This document shows, in pieces, positions 1 through 52,847 of a stretch of 64,000 bases of DNA. Every line of letters begins with the position of its first letter. The first letter of the stretch is position 1. The translations under genes were made by a program, and so were the position numbers. Origin of the DNA: a virus (lineage: Duplodnaviria > Heunggongvirae > Uroviricota > Caudoviricetes); the IMG/VR virus record IMGVR_UViG_3300033463_000001, positions 64,001-128,000 of that record, one strand, 5' to 3'. The notes beneath the pieces were generated by a model. That model had not been told where the DNA came from and searched no databases. It saw only the letters and a list, made by a program, of their open reading frames with translations.

Positions 1-217
1 TGAACATATTGGTATATACACCCTCTTCATCAGCCGCAGCGTGCGCGTCCAAACTCTCAATAGAGATAAACGGAGGAAAGTCCGTTCCAGCCGTTTGACG
101 AATGGTCACGATAGCGTCAGGACTGAACGCTACCACGTTCTTTAGCAAACGGAGTAAATCTTTTGCAGAGATTTCTTTCATAATCTCCATGCTACTAAAT
201 GCTTGTTGTTGTGCCAT
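1..217 (-). CDS. hypothetical early protein (3' end runs off the window)
   Basis: ATG at 217 just downstream of promoter P1; open frame MAQQQAFSSMEIMKEISAKDLLRLLKNVVAFSPDAIV... to the window edge. Confidence 0.6.
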   Translation of the reverse strand, partial: MAQQQAFSSMEIMKEISAKDLLRLLKNVVAFSPDAIVTIRQTAGTDFPPFISIESLDAHAAADEEGVYTNMF

Positions 218-244
218 AGTTGTGATGATTTTCAAATTCGACCG

Positions 245-329
245 CAAAGGTATGTAAAATTTTTGACATACGCAAATTTTTGGCTAAAAATCGTTCGAAA
301 AACTTCAAATTGCAAAGTCCAGTTAGCAA
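245..329 (-). promoter_or_regulatory. early promoter cassette P1 (Bacteroidota sigma-A type plus upstream 20-bp operator)
   Basis: TACCTTTG at 245-252, TTTG at 273-276 (20-bp spacer), operator ttgcaaagt-cc-agttagcaa at 310-329. Confidence 0.85.
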
Positions 330-337
330 AAAAAGCA

Positions 338-508
338 CTACACGTCCGGTTTTTTATGTTTTACCTTACGTGTATATGCCTTCTTCGAAACCTCAACCTT
401 ATTGTGGTTAATTGGTTTCCCATGTGCAGCAATCTCTTCCTCACGGCTTTGTCTCCGTGCCGCCTTGATGATTGCCAATGTCTCCTTATTTGTCTTCGTC
501 ACTCGCAT
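338..508 (-). CDS. small basic protein, 56 aa, with an ArfA-like YxRKxKH tail
   Basis: Not in the ORF track. MRVTKTNKETLAIIKAARRQSREEEIAAHGKPINHNKVEVSKKAYTRKVKHKKPDV; its start overlaps the stop of the upstream gene. Confidence 0.65.
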   Translation of the reverse strand: MRVTKTNKETLAIIKAARRQSREEEIAAHGKPINHNKVEVSKKAYTRKVKHKKPDV

Positions 509-801
509 GGCTCTGGTTCGTTTTTTGTCTGGAATGCCAACGCACGCAAGGCAGCGAAGAACTCCGGCGAATTGAGAGGTGCGCTATTGCATAGACGTTC
601 TGCGCTACACATAGTCCGCAAATCTCCGATGAAGATATTACTCGTCTTCCATGCTTTCGCCAACTCAATAGCGTCCGACTTTGTGTCCGCATAGAAGAAC
701 ACGCGTGTCTTCGGTTTGAGGTTGGGAGTGATACGATATTCGCCCTCAACGTAGAAGAGGGTCTCGCCTGCGTCCGGCTTATTTACAAAGTAGTGTAGCA
801 T
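499..801 (-). CDS. hypothetical early protein
   Basis: ACTATG start context, fits the operon; contains a YADTKSDAIELAK segment like its neighbours. Confidence 0.7.
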   Translation of the reverse strand: MLHYFVNKPDAGETLFYVEGEYRITPNLKPKTRVFFYADTKSDAIELAKAWKTSNIFIGDLRTMCSAERLCNSAPLNSPEFFAALRALAFQTKNEPEPCE

Positions 802-835
802 AGTCTTTCAGTTACGTGTTATACAATTATGTTAA

Positions 836-1189
836 TTAGTCCTCATCTGCGTTCTCCGGCTTGATTTTGTCGAGGACGTGCTCCAATATGTCTGCGTAGT
901 CCGTGTACGGCTCACAAACGAGATAGACGTTACTCTTTGTGTCTCCCAAATCGTCCGAATAGACGGTCGCGTAGAGCGTGTCATTGACGAGGTTCAGTTT
1001 TAAGATTTCCACCAAGTAGTAGCCACTATTAAAAGCCGATGAGACAAATTGCGGTGCGTTATTACGCTCAAAGGTTATCTCTCCACCCAGTTCAGCAATG
1101 AGTGTCTCGCATGCCCTGCGAGTGTTACGTACTGCGGAATTGTAGGTTGCGATGAGGTTTTGACCTAACTTAAAAAGTGCCTTAATCAT
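836..1189 (-). CDS. hypothetical early protein
   Basis: 117-aa ORF tightly packed in the minus-strand operon. Confidence 0.7.
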   Translation of the reverse strand: MIKALFKLGQNLIATYNSAVRNTRRACETLIAELGGEITFERNNAPQFVSSAFNSGYYLVEILKLNLVNDTLYATVYSDDLGDTKSNVYLVCEPYTDYADILEHVLDKIKPENADED

Positions 1190-1234
1190 AGATAAAAATG
1201 TCGGTTGCCCTATACACCGAAAGGTCTTGCGTTA

Positions 1235-2020
1235 TTATTCCTCGTTGACATAGGAACGGAATGCGTCCCAAGAAAACTCCATGCTCGTTTCGCCACAAAG
1301 CGGCTCGCGGTGGCACATGTGGTTGATACCGAATGCGTCCTTGAAGAACGTGAACGTTGAACCGCTATGCCAACCAACGCAACCAAGTTCGTTGCCGTAG
1401 TGCTCCAAGCATAGTGCTGCGTATGGTGGTAAGCCGTTATCGCAGGCTCTCTTGCCTATTGCTATTCTCGCACGAAACTTATCTCCGTACTTATTACCGA
1501 GTATCTCGTTAGCCACCTTGACACATTCGTTCATCAAGTCTTCAATACTCGGCTCGGTAGCACCGCGAGCAATACGTGCCGCATTTGCCTTATTTTGCTC
1601 TGCTACCCATTTCTTAACGAAAGCCACAATAGCCGCACGTTGCTCATCAGTCAAGTCATGTTTCGCGTCTCTATGGAACGTTGCGTAGCCTTGTTTACAA
1701 TCGGTTGGGTCTTGCTCACATAGGGTCTGCTTTTTCCATGAGCGGTTTGTGATTTCAATGCTGAATGTAAATGCTCCCTTGCTCCATTCGTTAGTGCTGA
1801 CGCACCAATACATTTCCGAGACACCCCAATTCGTTGTGACACCATAGGAAGTCTCTTGCACCCTATACCCAAAGGCTGGGTTGAGAGATTGTAGGTTCAT
1901 GCGTCCGTTACGTCCGTCCAATCGTCCGGCAGTAGTGCCATAGAGTGATAGACCCGTGCGTGCGTCATACTTCTCCAAATTGATTGCACTCAATTCTTTT
2001 TTGAACTCTTCGTAAGTCAT
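1235..2020 (-). CDS. hypothetical early protein
   Basis: 261-aa ORF, first gene after promoter P2. Confidence 0.75.
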   Translation of the reverse strand: MTYEEFKKELSAINLEKYDARTGLSLYGTTAGRLDGRNGRMNLQSLNPAFGYRVQETSYGVTTNWGVSEMYWCVSTNEWSKGAFTFSIEITNRSWKKQTLCEQDPTDCKQGYATFHRDAKHDLTDEQRAAIVAFVKKWVAEQNKANAARIARGATEPSIEDLMNECVKVANEILGNKYGDKFRARIAIGKRACDNGLPPYAALCLEHYGNELGCVGWHSGSTFTFFKDAFGINHMCHREPLCGETSMEFSWDAFRSYVNEE

Positions 2021-2059
2021 AATCTATACGTGTTTTAGGGTTGAACTTCAAATCGAGTG

Positions 2060-2144
2060 CAAAGGTAAGTAAAAATTTTGATATATGCAAATTTTCGAGC
2101 AGAAAAATGCAAAAAATCTCATTTTTGCAATCTCTACTTTGCAA
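2060..2144 (-). promoter_or_regulatory. early promoter cassette P2
   Basis: TACCTTTG 2060-2067, TTTG 2088-2091, operator ttgcaatct-ct-actttgcaa 2125-2144. Confidence 0.85.
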
Positions 2145-2343
2145 TTTTCTTGTTTTTACTCTTCAACTCTTCCACAATCTCTCCCAGCAGACAACCGATG
2201 ATGAGAAAGAAGTTGAACCCAGCGACCAGCATGTTTGTCACTCCACTAATTATATCAGCGTTGGACAACTGATACAAACCGATGAAGATGAATATCAACG
2301 CGAGCAGTAGGTTTACCCAATAGTATTTGTACATGTACGGCAT
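2134..2343 (-). CDS. small two-TM membrane protein
   Basis: Two hydrophobic stretches and a basic C-terminus. Confidence 0.65.
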   Translation of the reverse strand: MPYMYKYYWVNLLLALIFIFIGLYQLSNADIISGVTNMLVAGFNFFLIIGCLLGEIVEELKSKNKKIAK

Positions 2344-2376
2344 AGTGATACGTATTAAAAGTGTTAGTGGTTAATA

Positions 2377-2706
2377 CTACATGAACAAACCCAAATACGG
2401 AGCGAAGTGCTCGCTGATGAGAGAGTTCAGTTTTGCTTCTTGCTTAATCTTCTCTGCGTAAGCCTTGCGGTCTTCCTCGCCCATGTCCATGTACTCCTGC
2501 AAGCGTCTGTTCCAATCTTCGAATTGGTTCAGTTTGTCTCGCATTTCCATTTTCTCCTGCTCGGCTTTCATAGCACGCGCGGAGAGTTCCTTGTTGCGCT
2601 GACGAAGACGTTCGATTTCCTCTTCCAATCGTTCCGTCTTCGCCTTGTACTGCGCAGCGAGTTTGTTACGCATGTTTGCCTCTATGGCTTTGCGTGTTTG
2701 TTTCAT
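2377..2706 (-). CDS. coiled-coil protein
   Basis: E/K/R-rich heptad pattern. Confidence 0.7.
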   Translation of the reverse strand: MKQTRKAIEANMRNKLAAQYKAKTERLEEEIERLRQRNKELSARAMKAEQEKMEMRDKLNQFEDWNRRLQEYMDMGEEDRKAYAEKIKQEAKLNSLISEHFAPYLGLFM

Positions 2707-2709
2707 AAC

Positions 2710-2910
2710 TTATGCGGTTACAATTTCATCGTCCGGCTGGTTGCTCCAATGGCAATCTCCGTTGTTATCAATGACGCGAATAGCGTCTTCCTCTGGGTTG
2801 CGCGCTGCGGCTTTTGCTTGTGCGTACTTGATAGCCGCAGCCTTGACCTTATAGACGTGGTTGATGAACTTACAATTCATTTCCACATAGAATTTTGTCG
2901 GTTTATCCAT
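2710..2910 (-). CDS. hypothetical early protein
   Basis: 66-aa ORF, ACTATG start, abuts its neighbours. Confidence 0.6.
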   Translation of the reverse strand: MDKPTKFYVEMNCKFINHVYKVKAAAIKYAQAKAAARNPEEDAIRVIDNNGDCHWSNQPDDEIVTA

Positions 2911-2923
2911 AGTGGCTGGAGTG

Positions 2924-3172
2924 TTAAAGGTTAATAATGTCGTTAATCAGACAAGTGTACGTGCTTTCGCTAATTTCATCAAACCCATAAGGCTCAAAAT
3001 CATTAACATATTCTTCTTTCCCATAAGGACAAGCGTGAACTCCGTCTTTGTCGGCATACTGCGCATAGTATCCGTCATAACTTTCTCCGTTCCAATTTCC
3101 GTCAATAGGAACATTACCACCGAAATCTACGCGACCTGCTTTTGCTTTCTCAATCAATTCTTGTTTACTCAT
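2924..3172 (-). CDS. small acidic protein (start revised to MSKQEL)
   Basis: The longer ORF-track start lies inside promoter P3; ATG at 3172 is downstream of it. Confidence 0.65.
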   Translation of the reverse strand: MSKQELIEKAKAGRVDFGGNVPIDGNWNGESYDGYYAQYADKDGVHACPYGKEEYVNDFEPYGFDEISESTYTCLINDIINL

Positions 3173-3235
3173 AAGAATAAGTGTTTTAAGGGTTATGCAT
3201 TGTTGCCGACAATGGTTCGTTGTTAAATTCGGCTG

Positions 3236-3320
3236 CAAAGGTAAGTAAAATTTTTGAATTATGCAAATATTTTGGTGAAAAAATGCAAAATTTCTTACTT
3301 TTGCAAAGTCAAGATAGCAA
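3236..3320 (-). promoter_or_regulatory. early promoter cassette P3
   Basis: TACCTTTG 3236-3243, TTTG 3264-3267, operator ttgcaaagt-ca-agatagcaa 3301-3320. Confidence 0.85.
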
Positions 3321-3356
3321 AATGGGGTGTTTTTGTATATGCACCCCATTCGCTTA

Positions 3357-3842
3357 TCACATGTGCAGACGCGTCTCCGAGATATAGAAAGTAGTGTGTT
3401 TCTCGTTATAGCGACCATTCAAATAGCACTCCCAATGGTTGAGCAAGCCGGTCTGCATATCGGTTGTCTTGCAGATAGTATAATCCTCATCATCTTCCTT
3501 AACGTCACACTCCCAAGTCTCTCCGCTTGCCAGCATTTCATTAACCTTGAACGTTAGGAACTCATAGGCTTTGTCCTTTGAGAGGAAGACACCAAGTGGT
3601 TGTGTGCTGGTCTCATCATCGACTGCGAAGTCCATGATTACCGCATAAGCCTTTGGGAATATATTCTTGTCGAACTCATCGTTAGCCGGAGTTTCGATAA
3701 GTGCCTGGTGTACCACCGCGCTGGACTGACCGGTCTCTTTCATAACCTGCTCGGCTATGTTGAGTGCTTCGACATGATTGGACGCATTAACCGGAAAGCG
3801 GTGTGTGAACTGATATGTTGTTTCTACCAAAAAAGTCTTCAT
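3357..3842 (-). CDS. acidic hypothetical protein with an N-terminal DpnD/PcfM-like segment
   Basis: Start revised to MKTFLVETTYQFTHRFPVNASNHVEALNIA. Confidence 0.65.
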   Translation of the reverse strand: MKTFLVETTYQFTHRFPVNASNHVEALNIAEQVMKETGQSSAVVHQALIETPANDEFDKNIFPKAYAVIMDFAVDDETSTQPLGVFLSKDKAYEFLTFKVNEMLASGETWECDVKEDDEDYTICKTTDMQTGLLNHWECYLNGRYNEKHTTFYISETRLHM

Positions 3843-3903
3843 AGGTCTTGAATATACTAAATTAAGTACAATAGGGTTCGTTGTTTGCGAGAGAGTGGGC
3901 GGT

Positions 3904-4179
3904 TTATACCAACCCACGTCTCATTAAGTCCATGCGCTTGGCGAGCCGTTCGCTTTGAAACCATTGTGGCTTACCCTCTTGGAGCGCACGATATTTGTCT
4001 GGGTACTGACGTGCCACCTCACGCTCGCACTTATGGGAGCAGCAGTAATCATCTTCACGTCTTTTCCGGAAGTGACGCTCGCATATCGGACAGATACATA
4101 CGGAGTCCACCGGACGCGCCACGTTATTGTTGATTACTCGGATTGCGAATGGAAGTTGTTCTTGCGACTTGTTAGCCAT
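3904..4179 (-). CDS. zinc-ribbon protein
   Basis: CPIC...CCSHKC motif. Confidence 0.65.
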   Translation of the reverse strand: MANKSQEQLPFAIRVINNNVARPVDSVCICPICERHFRKRREDDYCCSHKCEREVARQYPDKYRALQEGKPQWFQSERLAKRMDLMRRGLV

Positions 4180-4271
4180 AGTTGTGTACGATTGCCTTGT
4201 ATCATCGTGAGGTTGTTAGGGGTTGAGAAAAAAGGTGCACTTAATACGTGTCGTGCGCAACCTCCGGCGGC

Positions 4272-4613
4272 TTATGCCGTGTGCCGCCAATCGACATTGC
4301 GTGTGCCCTCGATGTCGAAGTCATTGACCCACTCGCAACCATTTTGATACCACTTACCGCTCTTGCGTGTGATACCTGCGCCCATAGCGTTCAGGCGGCT
4401 CTTGGTGGTGTTCGTTCCGCACGTCTCGCCCTCGCGTCTGCGTCCAGCGTCCGAAAACTCATAGGTCTTCGTCTTGCGGTCATAGGTGGCTATTAGGTGT
4501 CCGTGCAGGTACACACACGTTGTGTCTCCCTTGGTTGCCACTTGGGTGTTACCCTGCGAAAAGTTGCGTCCACTCTCGATAGCGTTCAGCATTGCAATTT
4601 CGATTTTCTTCAT
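4272..4613 (-). CDS. conserved phage hypothetical protein
   Basis: NT.V...VYLHG..IA...TTKSRLNA pattern, recalled from T4-like phage early genes. Confidence 0.7.
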   Translation of the reverse strand: MKKIEIAMLNAIESGRNFSQGNTQVATKGDTTCVYLHGHLIATYDRKTKTYEFSDAGRRREGETCGTNTTKSRLNAMGAGITRKSGKWYQNGCEWVNDFDIEGTRNVDWRHTA

Positions 4614-4687
4614 AGCGCGTTCATCAATTACCTATACATTGAGAGGTCTTAAAAGGGTTAATTGCCGTTGTTTCTCAAAAGCGAGTG

Positions 4688-4772
4688 CAAAGGTAAGTAA
4701 AATTTTTGACATACGCAAGTTTTTTGCCAAAATTCGTTCAAATTTCTTACTTTTGCAAAGTCGAGTTTACAA
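4688..4772 (-). promoter_or_regulatory. early promoter cassette P4
   Basis: TACCTTTG 4688-4695, CTTG 4716-4719, operator ttgcaaagt-cg-agtttacaa 4753-4772. Confidence 0.8.
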
Positions 4773-4790
4773 AATAGGGGTGTTTTGTAC

Positions 4791-5036
4791 CTAAATGCCG
4801 CATTCGTAGCGTGCGAGCGTCCGCATTCCGTCTTCCAGCGTAACGCATTTGGAGAGGTCTGGACTATACTCGCTATCGTCTGGGTCTCCGAGTGCCCCCA
4901 TAGCCGCACGGAAAATGTCCCTTATAGCAGTCTCCGATAGGTCATTTTGGTCATAGCGTTCCACCTCATCAAGGAAGTACTCAAACGACTGCTGCATGTC
5001 CACGCGTGTAATATGCACCAATTCCATTCTATCCAT
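4791..5036 (-). CDS. small acidic protein (start revised to MDRMELV)
   Basis: ATG with an A-rich upstream region; D/E rich. Confidence 0.55.
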   Translation of the reverse strand: MDRMELVHITRVDMQQSFEYFLDEVERYDQNDLSETAIRDIFRAAMGALGDPDDSEYSPDLSKCVTLEDGMRTLARYECGI

Positions 5037-5123
5037 GTTTATTTGCGTTTTAAGCGACTTTCGTTGTTTGGCTGATAAGTTGGCTTGCTGGGACTTAATC
5101 GTCCCACACAAGCCGTTTTGTGG

Positions 5124-5516
5124 TTAGCGGGCTGACATTTTAGATTTGGTCAGGTAGATACCGCATGGGGTGTCTTCCGTTATCTCGTCATAGTCCAGCA
5201 GTTTGGGTTCGCCCTCGTTGAGGAATGCAATGGTGTCATCCACCATTTCTTCCAGCGTGTTGAACTCATACTCATACTGCTTGACCTCTGCCTGCAACTC
5301 AATGATACGCGTCTTATAGTCTCCCTCGCGCTTGTCCGCCTGAACGTCCCTTATGAAGTCGGCGAGCGGCACGATACAGAATGTGAAGTCGGTGCGTACA
5401 TACGGAGCGTGTTCTATATCGTCCGTGAACGTGTGCAGAATGTGCATGTCCTTTGGTGCACCCTCTACTTGCTCAATGGAATAGAGGTCTCTCTCTAAAA
5501 AGTCTTGTTTGTTCAT
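5124..5516 (-). CDS. acidic hypothetical protein
   Basis: 130 aa, strongly D/E rich. Confidence 0.7.
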   Translation of the reverse strand: MNKQDFLERDLYSIEQVEGAPKDMHILHTFTDDIEHAPYVRTDFTFCIVPLADFIRDVQADKREGDYKTRIIELQAEVKQYEYEFNTLEEMVDDTIAFLNEGEPKLLDYDEITEDTPCGIYLTKSKMSAR

Positions 5517-5517
5517 A

Positions 5518-5775
5518 TCACTTCTTATCGTAAAAGTCGTTGGTGCTCGGTTTTACTACTACGGTAAACAAAATACCTGTTCCCAGCGCGAGGACAAGAG
5601 CGGTGTCCGCCTTGCGGTTCTTTCCGTGTTCCACGTACGCCACATATCTTTGCAGGGTCTCTTTGTTTCGGTTCATCAAGCGTTTCCAAACCTTTAGAAG
5701 TTGCTTTTCGTGAATGGGGTGGTTCTCCTGCTCGTAAGCGGCAATCAGTTGCTCAATCAATGCTTTCTTTGTCAT
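5518..5775 (-). CDS. small protein with a C-terminal hydrophobic segment
   Basis: ALVLALGTGILFTVVV; first gene after P5. Confidence 0.6.
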   Translation of the reverse strand: MTKKALIEQLIAAYEQENHPIHEKQLLKVWKRLMNRNKETLQRYVAYVEHGKNRKADTALVLALGTGILFTVVVKPSTNDFYDKK

Positions 5776-5921
5776 AGACGCAATGTTTTGAATGGTTAGT
5801 ACTCTGTCCGAGAAATGAGTTAGGGGTTTGAAACTTATTCCAGCGGGTGTTGTTATCCTTATCCTACTTTGCGGTGCTCAACTTTTCGCACACTTTCAAC
5901 GCTCATTCTCGAAATTGGGTG

Positions 5922-6006
5922 CAAAGGTAAGTAAAAAAATTGACATATGCAAATTTTTCAGCAAAAATCGTTCGAAAAACCTCAAATTGCAAAGTCCACT
6001 TGACAA
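5922..6006 (-). promoter_or_regulatory. early promoter cassette P5
   Basis: TACCTTTG 5922-5929, TTTG 5950-5953, operator ttgcaaagt-cc-acttgacaa 5987-6006. Confidence 0.85.
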
Positions 6007-6077
6007 AATGGGCACTTTTGTGGCAATAGGCGAGCGGTTTTTTGTCTCCGCTCACCTATCACAACCCCTTGCGGTGT

Positions 6078-6272
6078 TTAGTCTTCAACCTCAACTGCGT
6101 CAGGCGCACTATCTTCTTGCAGTCCGTCCAGCAGTTCCTTGATGTAGCACTCGCGCGCTGATTCCGCCTGCGCCAAATCAATTGCCTCTCTCTCGCTCTC
6201 CGCCTGCACGTTGATAGAGAGGTTCGTGTGGAAGTAAAGGGTGACGTTATACGTCTTCTTTTGCTTTGTCAT
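6078..6272 (-). CDS. small DpnD/PcfM-like acidic protein
   Basis: KTYNVTLYFHTNLSINVQAESEREAIDLA pattern. Confidence 0.6.
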   Translation of the reverse strand: MTKQKKTYNVTLYFHTNLSINVQAESEREAIDLAQAESARECYIKELLDGLQEDSAPDAVEVED

Positions 6273-6287
6273 AGTCCAAAAAAGATT

Positions 6288-6491
6288 TTAGTTATCGGTT
6301 TCAAATGTGCCGCAGGGACATTCAAGGTCTTCCTCAATATCTCCCACGTTGTCCTGAATGATGTAGTTCATGTAATCAGCACGAACCTTATCAACTGCCA
6401 ACTCTGCCGCCTTATCGGCTGCGCTCTCGTTGTCCTCAACAACAACGCGCGTTGTAATGACCAAAGTCACAAGTAATGCTTTCTTTGCCAT
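6288..6491 (-). CDS. small acidic hypothetical protein
   Basis: LVTLVITTRVVVEDN...A..A; acidic C-terminus. Confidence 0.65.
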   Translation of the reverse strand: MAKKALLVTLVITTRVVVEDNESAADKAAELAVDKVRADYMNYIIQDNVGDIEEDLECPCGTFETDN

Positions 6492-6503
6492 AGCCGTATA
6501 GAA

Positions 6504-6980
6504 TTAAAATTTAGTCCACCAAAATTCCGTACCCATGAGGGTTTCCGTATAGTCCTTGCACCACTCGTCAAAGCGACCTTGATTCTCCAGAATGTCAAGG
6601 AAGAGCATAGGAGACCAGTCCAGCCGCTTGTTCATAAAATCGTGGCTCGCGCTTACCCAATGCGTTTTCTCCTTTGCGTCATAGTGAATATAGAGGAAAC
6701 TATCAGCAGGGACTACAACGCGTTTCTCTGCGTCAAAGAATGGGAGCAGAATGGGTCGGCACAAATGGTTCGCGTCCTTTGGGTTCGGCTCAAACTCTGG
6801 ATAGTGTTTCTCAAACCACTCATAGACGAGGTGCTGGCTTTCTATCTTGCTGACGAAGTTCTCGTCATGCCGTTTGGCTGCCTGCGACACGTACGTGTGT
6901 GTGTTCAGGCGTTCCTTGATACTTTCTACTGCGCGCAATGCTCTCAAATGCTCGCTCGGAAGACATAAATGGATAGTCAT
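6504..6980 (-). CDS. hypothetical early protein
   Basis: 158 aa, first gene after P6. Confidence 0.7.
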   Translation of the reverse strand: MTIHLCLPSEHLRALRAVESIKERLNTHTYVSQAAKRHDENFVSKIESQHLVYEWFEKHYPEFEPNPKDANHLCRPILLPFFDAEKRVVVPADSFLYIHYDAKEKTHWVSASHDFMNKRLDWSPMLFLDILENQGRFDEWCKDYTETLMGTEFWWTKF

Positions 6981-7006
6981 AATCGTAGGGTGTTAAAATT
7001 CGGCTG

Positions 7007-7091
7007 CAAAGGTATGTATTTTTTCTGACATACGCAAATTTTTAGCCGAAAAAGTGTTAAAAAACTCAATTTTGCAAACTCTACTTTGCAA
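7007..7091 (-). promoter_or_regulatory. early promoter cassette P6
   Basis: TACCTTTG 7007-7014, TTTG 7035-7038, operator ttgcaaact-ct-actttgcaa 7072-7091. Confidence 0.85.
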
Positions 7092-7097
7092 ATGCCT

Positions 7098-7175
7098 CTA
7101 TCGTGCTGGGGTGCTGCACAATGCTCCAACTGCGAGGAATGTGCATACAATTGCCAATAAAATTTTGATAGCCAT
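7098..7175 (-). CDS. 25-aa hydrophobic peptide
   Basis: MAIKILLAIVCTFLAVGALCSTPAR, ACTATG start. Confidence 0.4.
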   Translation of the reverse strand: MAIKILLAIVCTFLAVGALCSTPAR

Positions 7176-7179
7176 AGTG

Positions 7180-7311
7180 TCAAAACATTTCGTTATAGTC
7201 AACTCGTTCGTCCTCTGGGTCGCGTCCGAACTGCCGGTGGTCAAAGCGACTTGATGTACCTCCCCACCACCATTCTTCGGTCTCTCTACCCTCATAGTGT
7301 GTTGTTACCAT
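7180..7311 (-). CDS. 43-aa acidic peptide
   Basis: Not in the ORF track. MVTTHYEGRETEEWWWGGTSSRFDHRQFGRDPEDERVDYNEMF, ACAACTATG start. Confidence 0.5.
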   Translation of the reverse strand: MVTTHYEGRETEEWWWGGTSSRFDHRQFGRDPEDERVDYNEMF

Positions 7312-7402
7312 AGTTGTACGTGTTTATACTAAATTAAGTACATTTGTGGTATGGGTGGGAACACGAACCCAACTTGTGAGTTCGCATTCCCTTTCTCAAC
7401 CC

Positions 7403-7960
7403 TTATTGAGCGACCTGCAACTTGCGTGCGCCCTGCTCAATGTATTGCAGACTTTCGAACTTGTAGTCGCGCACCACTACTTCGTCTTCTCCACTCAACC
7501 CTGCTGCGAGTTGCTTTGCCGATTGAGCCTTTGCAGGAATGTACGATAGTATATCGTCAAGGGTCTTTTGGTCGGTTACGACCTTTCCGTCCAACTCATA
7601 TAGGACATTCGCATGTGTGTTAGCACGCATGGTGGTGCGCAGGTACTTCTGCTCCGGGTCCTTGTCGGCACACAAAATAAGGTTATTGATTACCCATGTG
7701 CGCCCTGACGGCTTTTCCACCTGATATTCGGTGTCCATGCCTGCGCGCTCCAAGCGGTTGCGGACCGTGTTGCCAAAGTTGTAACATAGTGCCACATTGA
7801 CCAAGCGCGTGACCTTGCGGACGCGACCGATATAGGGGTTCGCGGTCTTGCGCATGTTGGGTTCGGTTGATGTAATGATAGTTACACCAAAGGTCGCAGG
7901 GGTTAAGGACTTAACGAAGTTGATTACTCGTTCTTGTTGTGCAGCACTCATAGTTGCCAT
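7403..7960 (-). CDS. conserved large-phage hypothetical protein
   Basis: TEPNMRKTANPYIGRVRK motif; first gene after P7. Confidence 0.75.
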   Translation of the reverse strand: MATMSAAQQERVINFVKSLTPATFGVTIITSTEPNMRKTANPYIGRVRKVTRLVNVALCYNFGNTVRNRLERAGMDTEYQVEKPSGRTWVINNLILCADKDPEQKYLRTTMRANTHANVLYELDGKVVTDQKTLDDILSYIPAKAQSAKQLAAGLSGEDEVVVRDYKFESLQYIEQGARKLQVAQ

Positions 7961-8050
7961 AGTCTTTGCGAGCGGTCAGGCACTCGCGCCATTAAGTAAA
8001 ACAAAGGTTGTTCAGTTCTCGCAGGGACACTCCCTAACTGAAATCGAGTG

Positions 8051-8135
8051 CAAAGGTAAGTAAAAAAATTGACATATGCAAATTTTTCAGCAAAAATCGT
8101 TCGAAAAAGTGAATTTTGCTAACTCTACTTTGCAA
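8051..8135 (-). promoter_or_regulatory. early promoter cassette P7
   Basis: TACCTTTG 8051-8058, TTTG 8079-8082, operator ttgctaact-ct-actttgcaa 8116-8135. Confidence 0.85.
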
Positions 8136-8155
8136 AATGGGGTCTTTTGTGCCGG

Positions 8156-8410
8156 TTAGTCCGTCCTATTGACTATCTCTAACTCCCAAGAGATTTTGTC
8201 CACATGGTCGCTTATTGCATGCATGATACGCACACATTCGGCTTGCACATCAGCACCCAGTCCGTCAGCGGCAAATACCGCTCCGTCTTCACACCAATTG
8301 ACAAACGGCTCGCCACCATTCCGGCACACCACGTTATTCTCAATCATGTTGATTAGTTGATTAGCAACGCACACACACGCAATTGCCTTGTAATCGGTCA
8401 TAGTTTCCAT
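8156..8410 (-). CDS. hypothetical early protein (start revised to METMTDY)
   Basis: Lies downstream of P8. Confidence 0.6.
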   Translation of the reverse strand: METMTDYKAIACVCVANQLINMIENNVVCRNGGEPFVNWCEDGAVFAADGLGADVQAECVRIMHAISDHVDKISWELEIVNRTD

Positions 8411-8441
8411 TTGAACCACGTTTTTAGTTTGAAATCGGCTG

Positions 8442-8617
8442 CAAAGATACAAAAAAAATTTGATATATGCAAGTTTTTGAGTAAAAAAATTTTATGTTGT
8501 AAAACATGTTTTTTCGTAAGTCGTTGTGTTTCAGCCGGTTACGTTGTTTGGCGCACAAGAAAAAAATGAAAAAATGCAGACGGGTATTGCATATATGAAA
8601 AAAATTGCTTACCTTTG
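8442..8617. promoter_or_regulatory. divergent promoter pair P8 (-) and P9 (+) with a central imperfect palindrome
   Basis: P8: TATCTTTG 8442-8449, CTTG 8470-8473. P9: ATTG 8586-8589, TACCTTTG 8610-8617. cgtaagtcgttgtgtttcagccggttacg at 8515-8543. Confidence 0.75.
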
Positions 8618-8678
8618 CAGGCGAAATCGGTAACGAGACCGATGATGACCCTATTATTCATTATAAACGCATACGCAC

Positions 8679-8810
8679 ATGAAAGCGAAAGACATGGCAA
8701 AAATTCTCATGGAGCACCCAGATGCAGAGGTGGCTACCTACGGCATTCGTGGCAACGTGGAAAGCCACAATTTAATTTTCAACGGAGTGAATTGGTGGAT
8801 AGGCGCATAG
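8679..8810 (+). CDS. 43-aa peptide
   Basis: Not in the ORF track. MKAKDMAKILMEHPDAEVATYGIRGNVESHNLIFNGVNWWIGA, directly after P9. Confidence 0.6.
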   Translation: MKAKDMAKILMEHPDAEVATYGIRGNVESHNLIFNGVNWWIGA

Positions 8811-8851
8811 CCGGAGCGACCCAGAGACAAAATAGGGCAATAGACCCTGTT

Positions 8852-8936
8852 TTGTCAACTGGACTTTGCAAAATGAACTTTTTCAGCACTTTTTTGCGTG
8901 AAAATTTGTATATTTGAAAAAAAATACTTACCTTTG
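8852..8936 (+). promoter_or_regulatory. early promoter cassette P10
   Basis: Operator ttgtcaact-gg-actttgcaa 8852-8871, TTTG 8905-8908, TACCTTTG 8929-8936. Confidence 0.85.
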
Positions 8937-9001
8937 CACAAAATTTGACACGAACCCCTTTTAGAGGTGCAGGCAACACCATAAACACCGCCCCAATACC
9001 T

Positions 9002-9448
9002 ATGGTACGCAATATCTTCAAAGTCGCTGGACACGCTTACGAGTACACCACCAACACCACACGCTCGCACTATTCCACCACCGAGCACGCAACGCTCTAC
9101 CGAGACGGAAACGAGGTCTCTCATGGTACGGACACGTGGCTCAATCGTCCATGGTACGCTTACCGATACCAAAACGCTATCTCTGCCGCAGTCCGCAATT
9201 TCTTCCAAGAGTTAGCAGACCAAGCAGTAGCAGAGTGGAAGACCACCAACGGCAAAAGAGCCATTCCAAGAGCCGTTCGCGAAGAGGTCGAAGAGCCGTT
9301 CCTCGTTGTGGCGCACAAGTTAATGACCAAGATTAACACCGCCAACGGAGTGAGCACACACAAACGCGAGACCCTCAAACAACGAAGGGCAAGGCTCGCA
9401 AGAGAGGAACGAGCAAAGGCGAAAGCCATGAAGGCGCAAGCCAAGTGA
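9002..9448 (+). CDS. phage hypothetical protein with a basic C-terminus (start revised to MVRNIF)
   Basis: ATLYRDGNEV...NRPW.AY.YQ pattern; follows P10. Confidence 0.7.
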   Translation: MVRNIFKVAGHAYEYTTNTTRSHYSTTEHATLYRDGNEVSHGTDTWLNRPWYAYRYQNAISAAVRNFFQELADQAVAEWKTTNGKRAIPRAVREEVEEPFLVVAHKLMTKINTANGVSTHKRETLKQRRARLAREERAKAKAMKAQAK

Positions 9449-9451
9449 ACC

Positions 9452-9600
9452 GGAACGTGGGGAGGGACAGACACCCCTCCCCATGTCCTCCACCGGAGAC
9501 CCCTCCCCATGTACCCCCTCCCTGCGTAACCCCTACCGGAGGAGGGCGGTTTTGGGGGCCGTCATTTGGGGCGGACTGTTGGCCATAAAAATTTTTTGGG
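9452..9600. repeat. C/G-run repeat element at the end of the early segment
   Basis: ACCCCTCCCCATGT at 9473-9486 and 9499-9512, inverted copy acgtggggaggg at 9455-9466, further C and G runs, then aaaaatttttt. Confidence 0.75.
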
Positions 9601-10132
9601 TCCTTTTTAAATGAGTTCCAGGAGGACCACTATTTTTTGGAATCGCGTAGTTCCATGGTTACAGATGTGCAGCAGATGAGCAATATGCCGAAGTAGTGTC
9701 AATATGGATATTACGTCGTTGTTGTTTTGGAAGTCCACTCGTCCTTTGACAACAGAATGGATTTTGGTACGAGATTCACAGTAGTTTTGTTATTAGGTGT
9801 TCAGGAGCCGGCATGGTATTTTGCTACGGGTGTGATTCGGGTTGTGATGATTAGACGGGAACAGTTCTATCCATAGTAGCCGTATTACTGTATGTTGGTG
9901 TATAGGCTTAATGGAATCGCGTAGTCCGTTTGGCGGTTGGTATGTTACGGATGTGGCCTGGTTTTTTTCTCTATGATTACTGAGGAAGTCCTGGTGTCAC
10001 ACAAGTGCATTTTGTCAATGGGTGTTAGTAGTGTAGGTGATAGTTTGTGGATGAAGTTAACTTCCGTCACAAATGTTGTTCAATTATTGGTGTGTGTTCA
10101 ATAGTTTTTGAACAAGGTTGTACGGTTGGTAG

Positions 10133-10139
10133 TATTTAT
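10133..10139 (+). promoter_or_regulatory. putative late promoter TATTTAT (first of about 19 copies)
   Basis: Same motif at + 10497, 13301, 17691, 20769, 27260, 29147, 30875, 34217, 35097, 36525, 42696, 44093, 48600, 49525, 54567 and - 26291, 30857, 61262, always on the sense strand upstream of a gene. Confidence 0.75.
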
Positions 10140-10166
10140 TGGTAGCAATTAAATTAAGAATAAGAT

Positions 10167-10415
10167 ATGGCACAGATGTTTTTAATCAAGTATACTGGAA
10201 CGACTATTCAGGCATGTTGCTTCCCGTATGTCTTCTCATCCGCAGAGAAAGCACAGCGGTTTATCGACGAAGCTTGCTACTACCCGGATGAGTTTGTGGT
10301 AATCGAAGCAGAGAACATGGATGAACTGGAAGAGGGTGCAGGTTGCACAAAGGATACAATCGAAAAGGTTGTAGGTGAGAAGGTGGAAAGGCTGCTGCAA
10401 AGTAAACTGCAATAA
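10167..10415 (+). CDS. hypothetical protein
   Basis: 82 aa, between TATTTAT and a terminator. Confidence 0.65.
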   Translation: MAQMFLIKYTGTTIQACCFPYVFSSAEKAQRFIDEACYYPDEFVVIEAENMDELEEGAGCTKDTIEKVVGEKVERLLQSKLQ

Positions 10416-10439
10416 TTCGCTGTGTATACACAGATTTCT

Positions 10440-10477
10440 GCCGAAGGTAATGGTGAAGTCGTTGCCTTCGGCTTTTT
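10440..10477 (+). terminator. intrinsic terminator
   Basis: gccgaaggtaatg...cgttgccttcggc followed by a T run. Confidence 0.75.
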
Positions 10478-10508
10478 GTTAGACTATATTAGCGTGTATT
10501 TATAGGTG

Positions 10509-12074
10509 ATGGATAATTTGAAGCAAAGTAACGGCCAACCAATGGAACAGGACTACATAGACAACAATTACACCCCGGACGGAATTAAGTTCTTCGGGGA
10601 GAAACACCTATGGACTGACCCGGATGCACTGCCGTTCGTATACCTAACCTTCAACGGTATCAATAAACTATTCATCGGTGACTACGGAACGAATCACCAC
10701 AAGATACACCAAGGCGACATCCGTAAGTACATGGAGGAACATGGTATGGAATATCAATGGATTGACCTGTAGCATCGCAAGAACAGGTGGTCGCATGATA
10801 TTGAGGTGGATGGCCGGGTGTGGCGCCTGATTCCTGATGCCAATAGGACACCAAGCAATGTTTTCTCATTCTGGAGTATTGGAAAGGAGATGGACGCTGG
10901 CCTGGTGAAACTGGTTGTTGACATGGTTGTTAAGGCGTTGCACATAGAAGACCAACCTATTTATATTTCGTCCGGGAGCGACGTGGTTCCATACGAAAAT
11001 GTCGGTGTTAACATAGCCGATAATGGAAATGTGTATGCGTCACACCTGCTTCCTCCTGAAAAGAAAAGAGAAGCAACTTCGGACTTTCGCAGTGCAAGAG
11101 ATAGCCGGCTTGGTAAAAAACTGACAATGTCCAACGGAAGCGAAATGACAATGGCACAATACAGAGCGCTGAAACAAACAAGTGAAAATACAATAAAAAA
11201 CATGGATAGAATACAAGGACTCCAGACAATAGTCAACGAAGCCATAACGTGCGTACTCAATGAGGCACCGGCTAAGAATGGTGACGGTTACTACATTGGC
11301 TTCGCATCACAGTTCTACACATTGTGGTACATCACCACAGTACACATCGTAGACAAGCGCGAGGAATACGACCTGACGAGGTTTAGTTATATCTGCAACC
11401 TGTCACATGACTTAGAACAGGCGAAGAGGAACGCAGAGCGTCGTGGCGTGGAAATCATCGCAGTTAACCCGGAACTAAGAGGTACACACTCTTGGGAAAG
11501 CCGCAGCAATGTCAAGGAGAAACTGGAGTTTAGTCCGGATAAGTATCAGTTTGGCAAGTGGGCTGGACAATACCTGTCATTCGGAGATGGCGACTACATG
11601 CTGTGGTACTACGACCAAATCATCAATAGCCCGTACTATGCGGAGAATAGGAAAGAGGTTGAGAAAATCCTACTGGATAACGGCTACCACATGGTGGACG
11701 GACGCGCAGTGAGCGATGAGGTTTATCAGTCAATGATTCAAAAACAGACTGATGCAGACAACGCGAAACAACTCATAGACTCCGGAGAGCCTATTGATGT
11801 CATTGCTCAGTCCAACCTCAAGGACGGATATCCGGAAGACTTTACATATTGTCGTGCAACATTAGGCAGCGAGCCAAGTGACAAATATATATGGTTACAC
11901 TTCAAAGAGTTCAAAGAGATGGTCTACCAGGGATTCCCGTACTACCTACCGGTTATCAATGGCAAGGCAAAGCGTATTAAGAATAAGGCATTGCGCATAG
12001 ACTCGTACACATACGTAGGAGATGCTGCAGACGGAATGCCGGCTATTGAAGTTCACTCATTTACTATGCTGTAA
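10509..12074 (+). CDS. multi-domain putative head-internal protein interrupted by one in-frame TAG (10770-10772)
   Basis: ORFs 10506-10772 and 10806-12074 are in the same frame with only this stop between them; internal IVNEAITCVLNE tag; FGKWAG motif. Confidence 0.55.
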
Positions 12075-47919: not shown

Positions 47920-48534
47920 ATGGAAGAGGTTAAAACCTCAGAACAATATGGATGCACGATTGTAGAACACATAGACGGAAAGCGCAAACCACTATGTGTT
48001 CTTGGCGTTCTACTTACACCGAGAGGTATTGAGATTCGTGATGAGATGATATCAGTTCTTTCTCCGTATTATCACGTATACGAGGTACAGCAGCAGGAAC
48101 CAGGAGTGTTGTTTGAATACCCGGCGCTTCGGTTCATGCAAGAGCTATGTCTATATCAACATCAGCCATGTCTCTATCTACACACTAAAGGTGCTGCATC
48201 AAACGGCTCCATGCAATCTAGGGTGCGTAAAATGTGGTATCACGAGTTTCTCCATTGTATAGATTGGTACATGCAGCAAACAGACACGACATATCCTGTT
48301 GTTGCGTGTCCATTCACTGGAACTGGAAGACAGACGTGGTTCAACGGTTTTTATGCGAATGAATATGCAATGGCTAGTGTAAATATAGAACCAAATGCTG
48401 ACCGATATCATTTTGAATCGTTATTCAGAGATTATCATCACGTTCGCATTGAAGCACGCATCGACAACGATGTTAGTGAAAGAAAAATACCTGACATGTT
48501 TCACAAGGTGAGAACCATCTCACAATCTGTTTAA
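47920..48534 (+). CDS. putative glycan-modifying protein
   Basis: FEYPAL...LYLHTKG...WFNGF...RY.FE motif; last gene of the sugar cluster. Confidence 0.55.
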   Translation: MEEVKTSEQYGCTIVEHIDGKRKPLCVLGVLLTPRGIEIRDEMISVLSPYYHVYEVQQQEPGVLFEYPALRFMQELCLYQHQPCLYLHTKGAASNGSMQSRVRKMWYHEFLHCIDWYMQQTDTTYPVVACPFTGTGRQTWFNGFYANEYAMASVNIEPNADRYHFESLFRDYHHVRIEARIDNDVSERKIPDMFHKVRTISQSV

Positions 48535-52815: not shown

Positions 52816-52847
52816 TTTGCATATTTGAAAAAAATTACTTATCTTTG
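52816..52847 (+). promoter_or_regulatory. host sigma-A type promoter for the endonuclease gene
   Basis: TTTG-N20-TATCTTTG, with a spacer resembling those of the early promoters. Confidence 0.75.

Follow-up and report, generated by a model that had tools for sequence, protein, structure and literature searches.

A dyad upstream of the early promoters of a lytic jumbo phage is shared with Bacteroidales chromosomes and dissimilar viruses

The early block and its promoters

We analysed a 64,000-nucleotide stretch (the window) of a tailed phage of the class Caudoviricetes (IMG/VR record IMGVR_UViG_3300033463_000001), in which a 20-bp inverted repeat, here called the dyad, lies upstream of most promoters in a block of small early genes. 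The window covers bases 64001-128000 of the 327,393-bp virus record. The G+C content of the record was 42%, and the DNA runs that matched the phage were bovine and goat gut metagenomes. Positions are those of the window unless given as genome positions.

Exactly ten promoters of the form TTG-N20-TA(C/T)CTTTG were found in the interval 245-8936, eight on the minus strand and two on the plus strand. By our own arithmetic about 0.06 would be expected by chance per 64-kb window. Their -7 boxes begin at 252, 2067, 3243, 4695, 5929, 7014, 8058 and 8449 on the minus strand and at 8610 and 8929 on the plus strand. The -7 element TA(C/T)CTTTG, present in all ten, conforms to TAnnTTTG, the -7 consensus of Bacteroidota primary-sigma (sigma-ABfr type) promoters (PMC7366714). 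The -33 TTG was located 20 nt upstream of the -7 box in each of the ten, and 21 nt upstream in one copy in the genome, within the 19-21 nt taken to define a TTTG or TTG of this type. Eight of these promoters (P1-P7 and P10) carried a dyad of the form TTGCAAAGT-NN-ACTTTGCAA with 1-3 mismatches each, starting at 310, 2125, 3301, 4753, 5987, 7072, 8116 and 8852. All eight 20-mers ended 34 nt before the TTG, that is, 33 nt before the TTTG. An initial annotation, made from the sequence of the window alone, had described ten promoters of the primary-sigma type, eight of them with a dyad at a fixed gap, and pattern searches confirmed the count, the coordinates, the promoter type and the gap. The features of the block are as follows.

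2-8410, minus strand: leftward small early genes, about 20 open reading frames (ORFs) of 43-261 amino acids
245-329, minus strand: P1; -7 box 245-252, TTG 273-275, A/T spacer 276-309, dyad 310-329 (TTGCTAACTggACTTTGCAA, promoter strand)
2060-2144, minus strand: P2; -7 box 2060-2067, TTG 2088-2090, dyad 2125-2144
3236-3320, minus strand: P3; -7 box 3236-3243, TTG 3264-3266, dyad 3301-3320
4688-4772, minus strand: P4; -7 box 4688-4695, TTG 4716-4718, dyad 4753-4772
5922-6006, minus strand: P5; -7 box 5922-5929, TTG 5950-5952, dyad 5987-6006
7007-7091, minus strand: P6; -7 box 7007-7014, TTG 7035-7037, dyad 7072-7091
8051-8135, minus strand: P7; -7 box 8051-8058, TTG 8079-8081, dyad 8116-8135
8442-8472, minus strand: P8, without dyad; -7 box 8442-8449, TTG 8470-8472
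8587-8617, plus strand: P9, without dyad, divergent from P8; TTG 8587-8589, -7 box 8610-8617
8852-8936, plus strand: P10; dyad 8852-8871, TTG 8906-8908, -7 box 8929-8936

The best dyad in the window was that of P6, which had one mismatch to the strict consensus and was identical over 28 nt to the dyad of a host locus (L124). P10, the only dyad module on the plus strand, has a hairpin just upstream (8834-8848) and drives the rightward genes from 9002. At P3 a hairpin (GGGGTG...CACCCC) adjoins the dyad on its upstream side. The P2 dyad overlaps the stop codon of the ORF at 2134-2343 and has no terminator hairpin upstream of it.

Copies and spacing in the phage genome

The whole record was searched for the dyad with up to three mismatches, together with a reversed control. 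Eighteen copies were recovered, all between genome positions 48,320 and 72,871. None was found elsewhere in the record and none with the reversed control; about 0.1 would be expected by chance, again by our own arithmetic. The dyads are thus confined to the early block, and the regulon comprises 18 promoters and not the eight counted initially.

The gap between the end of the dyad and the -33 TTG was 34 nt in 17 of the 18 copies and 23 nt in one. This places the dyad about 80 bp upstream of the presumed transcription start, with its centre five helical turns from the -33 element. The copy with the short gap, at genome position 54,328, belongs to a promoter outside the window (genome 54281-54347) that is a hybrid of two promoter classes, the dyad being followed by CGCCAAAAGATTTG of the other class described below. 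This hints at recombination between promoter cassettes.

In an alignment of the 16 fully regular modules, pairwise identity was highest in the core promoter (85%) and the dyad (80%), followed by the spacer (63%), the downstream segment (44%) and the upstream flank (29%). Since the spacers and outer flanks have diverged to this extent and yet the gap is fixed, its length appears to be held constant while its sequence drifts. The spacer consensus was AATGAAG-T6-GACA-T7-GCC-A6-T. The centres of its T6, T7 and A6 tracts are about 10 bp apart, in agreement with the phased A/T tracts noted initially.

About half of the copies had a GC-rich hairpin ending 2-3 nt upstream of the dyad, so that the T run of the terminator would be the TTTT of the dyad itself. 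Hairpin, dyad, spacer and core promoter together form a compact module, repeated 18 times beside ORFan genes and placed between short operons of small genes. Directly upstream, in the promoter sense, of the leftmost dyad (genome 48320) we found a sequence resembling a tRNA 3′ end (GGTTCGAGTCCCGATGGGGGCA, genome about 48340-48365), which indicates that the early block abuts the tRNA array of the phage.

The dyad in other viruses and in Bacteroidales

The pattern TTTGYNAWSTNNASWTNRCAA-N20-50-TTG-N19-21-TAYCTTTG was used to search viral and bacterial sequences; well under one match would be expected by chance in 596 Gb. Twelve loci on nine other IMG/VR viral contigs matched. Gaps in the viral contigs were 34-35 nt (six matches) or 44-46 nt (eight matches), with none between. 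Only one of the 12 loci (L005) resembled the phage at the DNA or protein level, and the other 11 had no detectable protein similarity to it. The perfect dyad TTGCAAAGTNNACTTTGCAA had no match in IMG/VR.

Among the matches listed, more than 120 loci were in bacterial genomes, nearly all of them Bacteroidales. The listed carriers included Paludibacteraceae and unclassified metagenome-assembled genomes (MAGs) from the rumen, from horse and from the human gut, as well as isolates of Prevotella amnii, P. aurantiaca, P. ihumii, P. histicola, P. falsenii and P. jejuni. Likeness between the phage module and the host loci was limited to the dyad and its T/A flanks, where it reached 100% over 23-28 nt. 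Its presence both in hosts and at dissimilar viral loci means that the operator is not specific to the phage.

Host genomes carried 1-8 sites each at up to two mismatches. Two Paludibacteraceae MAGs, G009 and G010, had eight sites each at this threshold (host MAG size 1.6-2.2 Mb). Counted at the same stringency, the 25-kb early block of the phage contains 18, over double that number. The neighbours of the dyad in G009 and G010 were core genes, encoding pantoate ligase, TrmD, the RNase P protein, YidD and a MiaB-like protein. Among the host matches listed, TetR-family genes were the downstream genes for 16 of 97 distinct proteins, followed by PepSY-like lipoproteins (8), HicA (6), AAA_14/DUF4143 ATPases (5) and AhpC/redoxin proteins (4), and FopS small RNAs lay downstream at four loci. 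A 16S rRNA gene was found downstream of the dyad at L092 by Rfam, and at L034 by a 16S primer match only. At least one host rRNA operon therefore carries the dyad, and probably two do. The three dyads of P. ihumii are far from its 16S genes, so a link to rRNA in that species was rejected. No tRNA was found downstream of the dyad among the matches.

Helical phasing and sites over transcription starts

The 141 bacterial and viral matches listed were de-replicated into 52 clusters sharing no spacer or leader sequence. Cluster gaps were 23-28 nt (16 clusters), 30 nt (1), 34-37 nt (23), 44-46 nt (10) and 49-50 nt (2), and no cluster had a gap of 29, 31-33, 38-43 or 47-48 nt. A Rayleigh test gave a peak at a period of 10.5 bp (R = 0.67, p about 6e-11). 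The spacing, whose loss outside this phage had been named initially as evidence against a role for the dyad, was therefore kept, and its differences amount to whole helical turns.

A second arrangement was detected in hosts. In eight of the 16 sites of G009 and G010 the dyad began 3-10 nt after the -7 box, over the predicted transcription start, and in 31 genomes of the family this arrangement gave seven exact matches against none for the control. The genes concerned encode an EF-G paralog, an MFS sugar transporter and a starch-binding lipoprotein, and include a MarR-Dps operon. Such a combination of phased upstream sites with sites over starts, the latter being a repressor position, is characteristic of dual regulators, and the putative dyad factor is probably of this kind.

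The spacers of some host promoters with an upstream dyad contained further sites. In eleven of the host promoter matches listed, the segment that separates dyad and -33 element held a box resembling that of BT4338/Cur, wwwTATGTTnTAnAACATAwww in Bacteroides thetaiotaomicron (PMC6989115). In 22 of the matches listed the spacer before TetR genes held GGAAACT-N14-AGTTTCC.

Symmetry of the dyad

The consensus derived from hosts was TTTGYAAAST-NN-ASTTTRCAAA, a dyad of 20-22 bp, of which the 26-bp form is ATTTTGCAAAGTAGAGTTTGCAAAAT. In 95 distinct host sites, position 4 was C or T (59:36) and position 8 was C or G (45:50). Six phage sites matched this consensus exactly, 13 with at most one mismatch and all 18 with at most two. 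Each copy had initially been described as having one perfect and one degenerate half. This was mostly an artefact of taking TTGCAAAGT as the sole perfect half: once C and T at position 4, and C and G at position 8, are seen to be equally tolerated, most of the pattern dissolves. Invariance was seen at the outer TTG/CAA, A6/T15 and T9/A12, which the pattern used for hosts prescribed, whereas the phage sites were free to vary there.

If the dyad acted as a hairpin or cruciform, in RNA or DNA, changes in one arm should be compensated in the other. Observed and expected complementarity at symmetric positions in the 95 host sites were 0.45/0.52, 0.47/0.51, 0.69/0.63 and 0.46/0.50, and in the 18 phage sites complementarity at positions 8/13 was 0.33 against an expected 0.53. 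No compensatory change above the expectation from base frequencies was found in either set. Since arm complementarity is not maintained, a hairpin or cruciform is unlikely and was rejected, and a protein site is favoured. The proposal that a dimeric factor binds about 75-80 bp upstream of the start is partly supported: the predicted binding site is two-fold symmetric, its halves do not covary, and it lies some 80 bp before the presumed start on a fixed face of the helix.

A second promoter class and phage regulators

About 15 equally good core promoters elsewhere in the phage genome lacked the dyad. One was located at 52840-52847 on the plus strand, and examples were found at the following genome positions.

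25126, 45436, 148573, 237873, 263205, 276021, 290264/290368 and 302547: second-class promoters

This class carried the element (A)ATCGTCCAAAGGA directly against the -33 TTTG. Neither three candidate host MAGs nor two other dyad-bearing viral records contained the upstream element (TCGTCYAAAGGATTTG). Because this element is missing from those MAGs and the dyad is present in hosts, the two classes differ exactly in whether their element is shared with hosts, and the second-class element is probably read by a phage factor. Two of its copies lie in front of a gene for a phage sigma factor. Two proteins of the sigma-70 family are encoded in the phage genome, with Sigma70_r2 matches at genome 282403-282603 and 290597-290779 in open frames of 235 and 320 amino acids, which suggests that later transcription classes run on phage sigmas. 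Searches of the phage for TetR_N, HTH_3 and DUF4143 domains were negative.

Nearly all early ORFs lacked a family match in Pfam and PHROGs. In the same searches no DNA-binding domain was recognised among the approximately 20 early ORFs of the window, and only weak coiled-coil matches were seen. The sole clear family match was the ORF at 4272-4613 (minus strand), which belongs to Kyanoviridae Gp96 (PF23790, 2e-17; phrog_554), a family without assigned function that also occurs in cyanophages. A megablast search of positions 1-12000 against a phage collection returned no match, and two early proteins (261 and 185 amino acids) used as queries against viral contigs revealed no relatives.

The divergent P8/P9 region, which has no dyad, contains at 8493-8508 a sequence (TATGTTGTAAAACATG) with one mismatch to the BT4338/Cur consensus TATGTTnTAnAACATA. 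It lies 20 nt upstream of the -33 TTG of P8 and is the only site in the genome at that stringency. It is possibly the target of a second host regulator.

Contigs of four rumen RNA libraries from three studies matched parts of early genes with 90-99% identity. Of the contigs listed, only one crosses a module, namely the P2 copy, which has no terminator. Stretches that no contig covered were given no weight. Many RNA-library contigs from other organisms aligned at 8439-8478, over about 35 nt of promoter core, and then diverged. Since they match only the core, the core sequence is generic among rumen Bacteroidales.

Candidates for the binding factor

Three proteins suggested by gene neighbourhood were considered and rejected. 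A TetR-family protein was encoded downstream of the dyad in 20 loci. Its Prevotella orthologs were only 25-30% identical or missing, and its promoters have the private inverted repeat GGAAACT-N14-AGTTTCC, which is the likelier TetR operator. At four loci upstream of a TetR paralog (L019, L024, L047 and L048) the left half of the dyad was overlapped by TGGCAC-N5-TTGT, which resembles a sigma-54 -24/-12 promoter. MarR was suggested by a perfect dyad over the start of the MarR-Dps operon in G009, and its orthologs in G010 and P. amnii had no dyad.

The AAA_14-DUF4143 ATPase was linked to dyads in 17 loci, five of them with tandem dyads. The DUF4143 genes of G009 and G010 had no dyad nearby, and the phages had no such gene. 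At L026, L057 and L104 two dyads with starts about 33 bp apart preceded the ATPase genes, and at L134 the entire dyad-promoter unit was repeated. Prevotella isolates had a single dyad between the ATPase gene and a conserved gene of 354-373 amino acids (MILHIFNPEHD...), to which no function is assigned.

Known motifs did not account for the dyad either. PM2, the second promoter motif of B. thetaiotaomicron (PMC7366714), is a -10/-30 core-promoter motif and not the dyad, and the sequence of the dyad does not match the Cur box TATGTTnTAnAACATA. We found no published description of the dyad motif, motif-word searches returning primer lists, and nothing relevant in the literature on phage promoters with TAnnTTTG or on DUF4143. 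A generic sigma-70 promoter and terminator scan was uninformative.

Function of the dyad

Because the same dyad precedes chromosomal genes in Bacteroidales of the rumen and the mouth, the early program of the phage is most likely tied to a regulator of the host. Initially the factor had been suggested to be either made by the host or delivered by the virion. The first is strongly favoured by the same phased dyad before Bacteroidales chromosomal genes and in viral loci without similarity to the phage, and nothing points to the second. We think that the dyad is probably, though with considerable reserve, the operator of a dimeric host regulator that sits at about -80, acts on RNA polymerase across a curved, UP-like spacer, and has had its site copied into the early promoters. 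The putative regulator would be encoded by a rumen Bacteroidales host, probably of the Paludibacteraceae or a neighbouring family, and the phage would have built the operator into every promoter of the early block, where all 18 dyads lie. The phased A/T tracts would both curve the DNA and serve as a UP-like contact surface. The bound host protein would then contact RNA polymerase from a single side of the helix, thereby setting the output of the whole early regulon. By analogy with class I activators, or with Fis at rRNA promoters, the effect is most likely activation or gating by host state, and the helical phasing and the dyad at rRNA promoters suggest activation.

Several observations weigh against this reading. 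The core promoters already have the consensus sequence, which is unusual for activator dependence and leaves room for repression or escape control; the precedent of phi29 p4 likewise allows for repression or for gating by host state. The host of the phage is not established, so the hosts named here are candidates, and most of the host genomes used were MAGs. A site with at most one mismatch was found in only 16 of 201 sampled Bacteroidales genomes, the reversed control giving 5; with few sites per genome and few genomes, the dyad marks a lineage-restricted regulon and not a general part of promoters. Constant spacing within one phage could partly stem from recent duplication of a single cassette, and the 23-nt copy, being a class hybrid, is not an independent helical-turn variant. 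The RNA-library contigs show parts of early genes and not their 5′ ends, and the libraries may contain DNA. Finally, all three neighbourhood candidates for the binding protein failed consistency tests.

A more far-reaching version, possible but doubtful, is that the phage makes its whole early program dependent on a global host regulator that reports nutritional or growth state. It is based on dyads in candidate hosts at the starts of genes for the EF-G paralog, the sugar transporter and the starch-binding protein, upstream of rRNA, and beside Cur-like boxes. With more than twice the sites of a whole candidate host genome, replicating phage DNA could in that case also titrate the regulator and so remodel the host regulon, a sensing-plus-sponge strategy for a lytic jumbo phage that would be run by a hitherto undescribed Bacteroidales regulator.

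A phage-encoded or mobile-element factor, such as an early, middle or virion protein acting as a shut-off repressor, might bind the dyad instead, the host copies being related mobile circuits. Phages commonly shut off early transcription with a repressor of their own, and p4 of phage phi29 binds near -80. Several host matches lie in mobile contexts, beside hicAB, RhuM, ERF, ParB-HTH or AAA_14/DUF4143 genes or in a 38-kb provirus, and a novel DNA-binding fold is conceivable since most early ORFs have no family match. We regard this as unlikely, however, as many host dyads are among core genes and before 16S rRNA, the EF-G paralog, the MFS transporter and FopS small RNAs, no protein similarity to the phage was detected for 11 of the 12 other viral loci, and the TetR_N, HTH_3 and DUF4143 domains were not found in it.

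It is also quite improbable that no separate factor is involved and that the dyad and A/T tracts are a structural or polymerase-intrinsic element that only strengthens the promoter, for example curved DNA, an extended UP element for the alpha C-terminal domains or additional TTTG contacts of sigma region 4. The TTTG(C) in each half does match the word of the -33 element, the outer TTG/CAA are invariant, and the left TTTG lies 54-55 bp (about five turns) upstream of the -33 TTTG across phased A/T tracts. A general contact should nevertheless mark many strong promoters, whereas the element is rare in hosts at both mismatch thresholds given above and missing from the 15 or so equally good phage core promoters. 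Upstream polymerase contact also makes no sense for dyads over transcription starts.

The hairpins next to about half of the phage copies, and the GC-rich stems that many host copies follow, would suit a roadblock or insulator that stops read-through after a terminator and is not a promoter element. This is very unlikely: the spacing from the promoter is constant and follows the helical period, several copies have no upstream hairpin (for example that at 2125, over a stop codon and crossed by an RNA-library contig), and a dyad that directly follows a -7 box could not serve a terminator. That the dyad is a functionless passenger in a cassette spread by duplication or recombination, as repetition of the whole module of about 110 bp with a spacer also 63% conserved in a stack of small ORFan cassettes might suggest, is close to refuted, since the dyad alone (23-28 nt), and not the rest of the module, is common to hosts at up to 100% identity and recurs, phased, in viral contigs without detectable likeness to the phage.

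Bacteroidales dominate the gut and rumen, and their transcription control is poorly mapped; the gene timing of their large lytic phages is nearly uncharted. The present result is a sharply specified and apparently undescribed operator, with rules for its geometry, that is common to host chromosomes, prophages and dissimilar phages. A 26-bp oligonucleotide could serve to isolate the binding protein from the cultured Prevotella carriers named above. Should the factor be a host regulator of growth or carbon state, the early program would be conditional on host physiology. Such a dependence would be relevant to rumen phage-host dynamics and to the design of regulated promoters for Bacteroidales.

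Comparison with known systems

Class I promoters of Escherichia coli have CRP sites centred at -61.5, -71.5, -82.5 and -92.5. The dyad is similar in being a two-fold site of about 22 bp upstream of the -35 equivalent, with distances that change in steps of one turn and, over a start, a repressive position. Its sequence, phylum and sigma factor are different, the phage core promoters are already of consensus type, and both activation and an alpha contact are conjectures here. Fis and the UP element at rrnB P1 offer another parallel, namely a putative regulator site upstream of an A/T-rich spacer at very strong promoters, rRNA operons included (at least one, probably two, with the dyad). Fis sites are degenerate, whereas the dyad is well defined, and growth-rate control by the latter is conjectural. 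To our knowledge, Bacteroidota have no Fis.

Among phage systems, protein p4 of phi29 at promoters A3/A2c recalls the dyad by its inverted repeat near -80 or -70 and by DNA bending. It contacts polymerase, activating weak and repressing strong promoters. Unlike the putative dyad factor, p4 is encoded by the phage and serves an early-to-late switch at few promoters, whereas the dyad is shared with hosts and present at 18 early promoters. The promoter-early stem-loop (PeSL) elements, reportedly described by Arbiol et al. in 2010 as mobile cassettes of T4-type phages, are likewise repeated modules of early promoter and stem-loop beside small ORFans in a plastic early region. They are not known to include an operator that is shared with the host and placed at a constant distance. 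The Cur box is, like the dyad, a palindromic site in Bacteroidales, recognised by a global dual regulator, but its sequence is different.

Helically phased upstream regulator sites and repeated early-promoter cassettes in phages are thus known kinds. What appears to be new is the operator itself, together with its use by several dissimilar phages and by Bacteroidales prophages, as judged from comparison of the fetched loci, and a lytic jumbo phage that places its whole early regulon at a host-shared site in more copies than a candidate host chromosome has.

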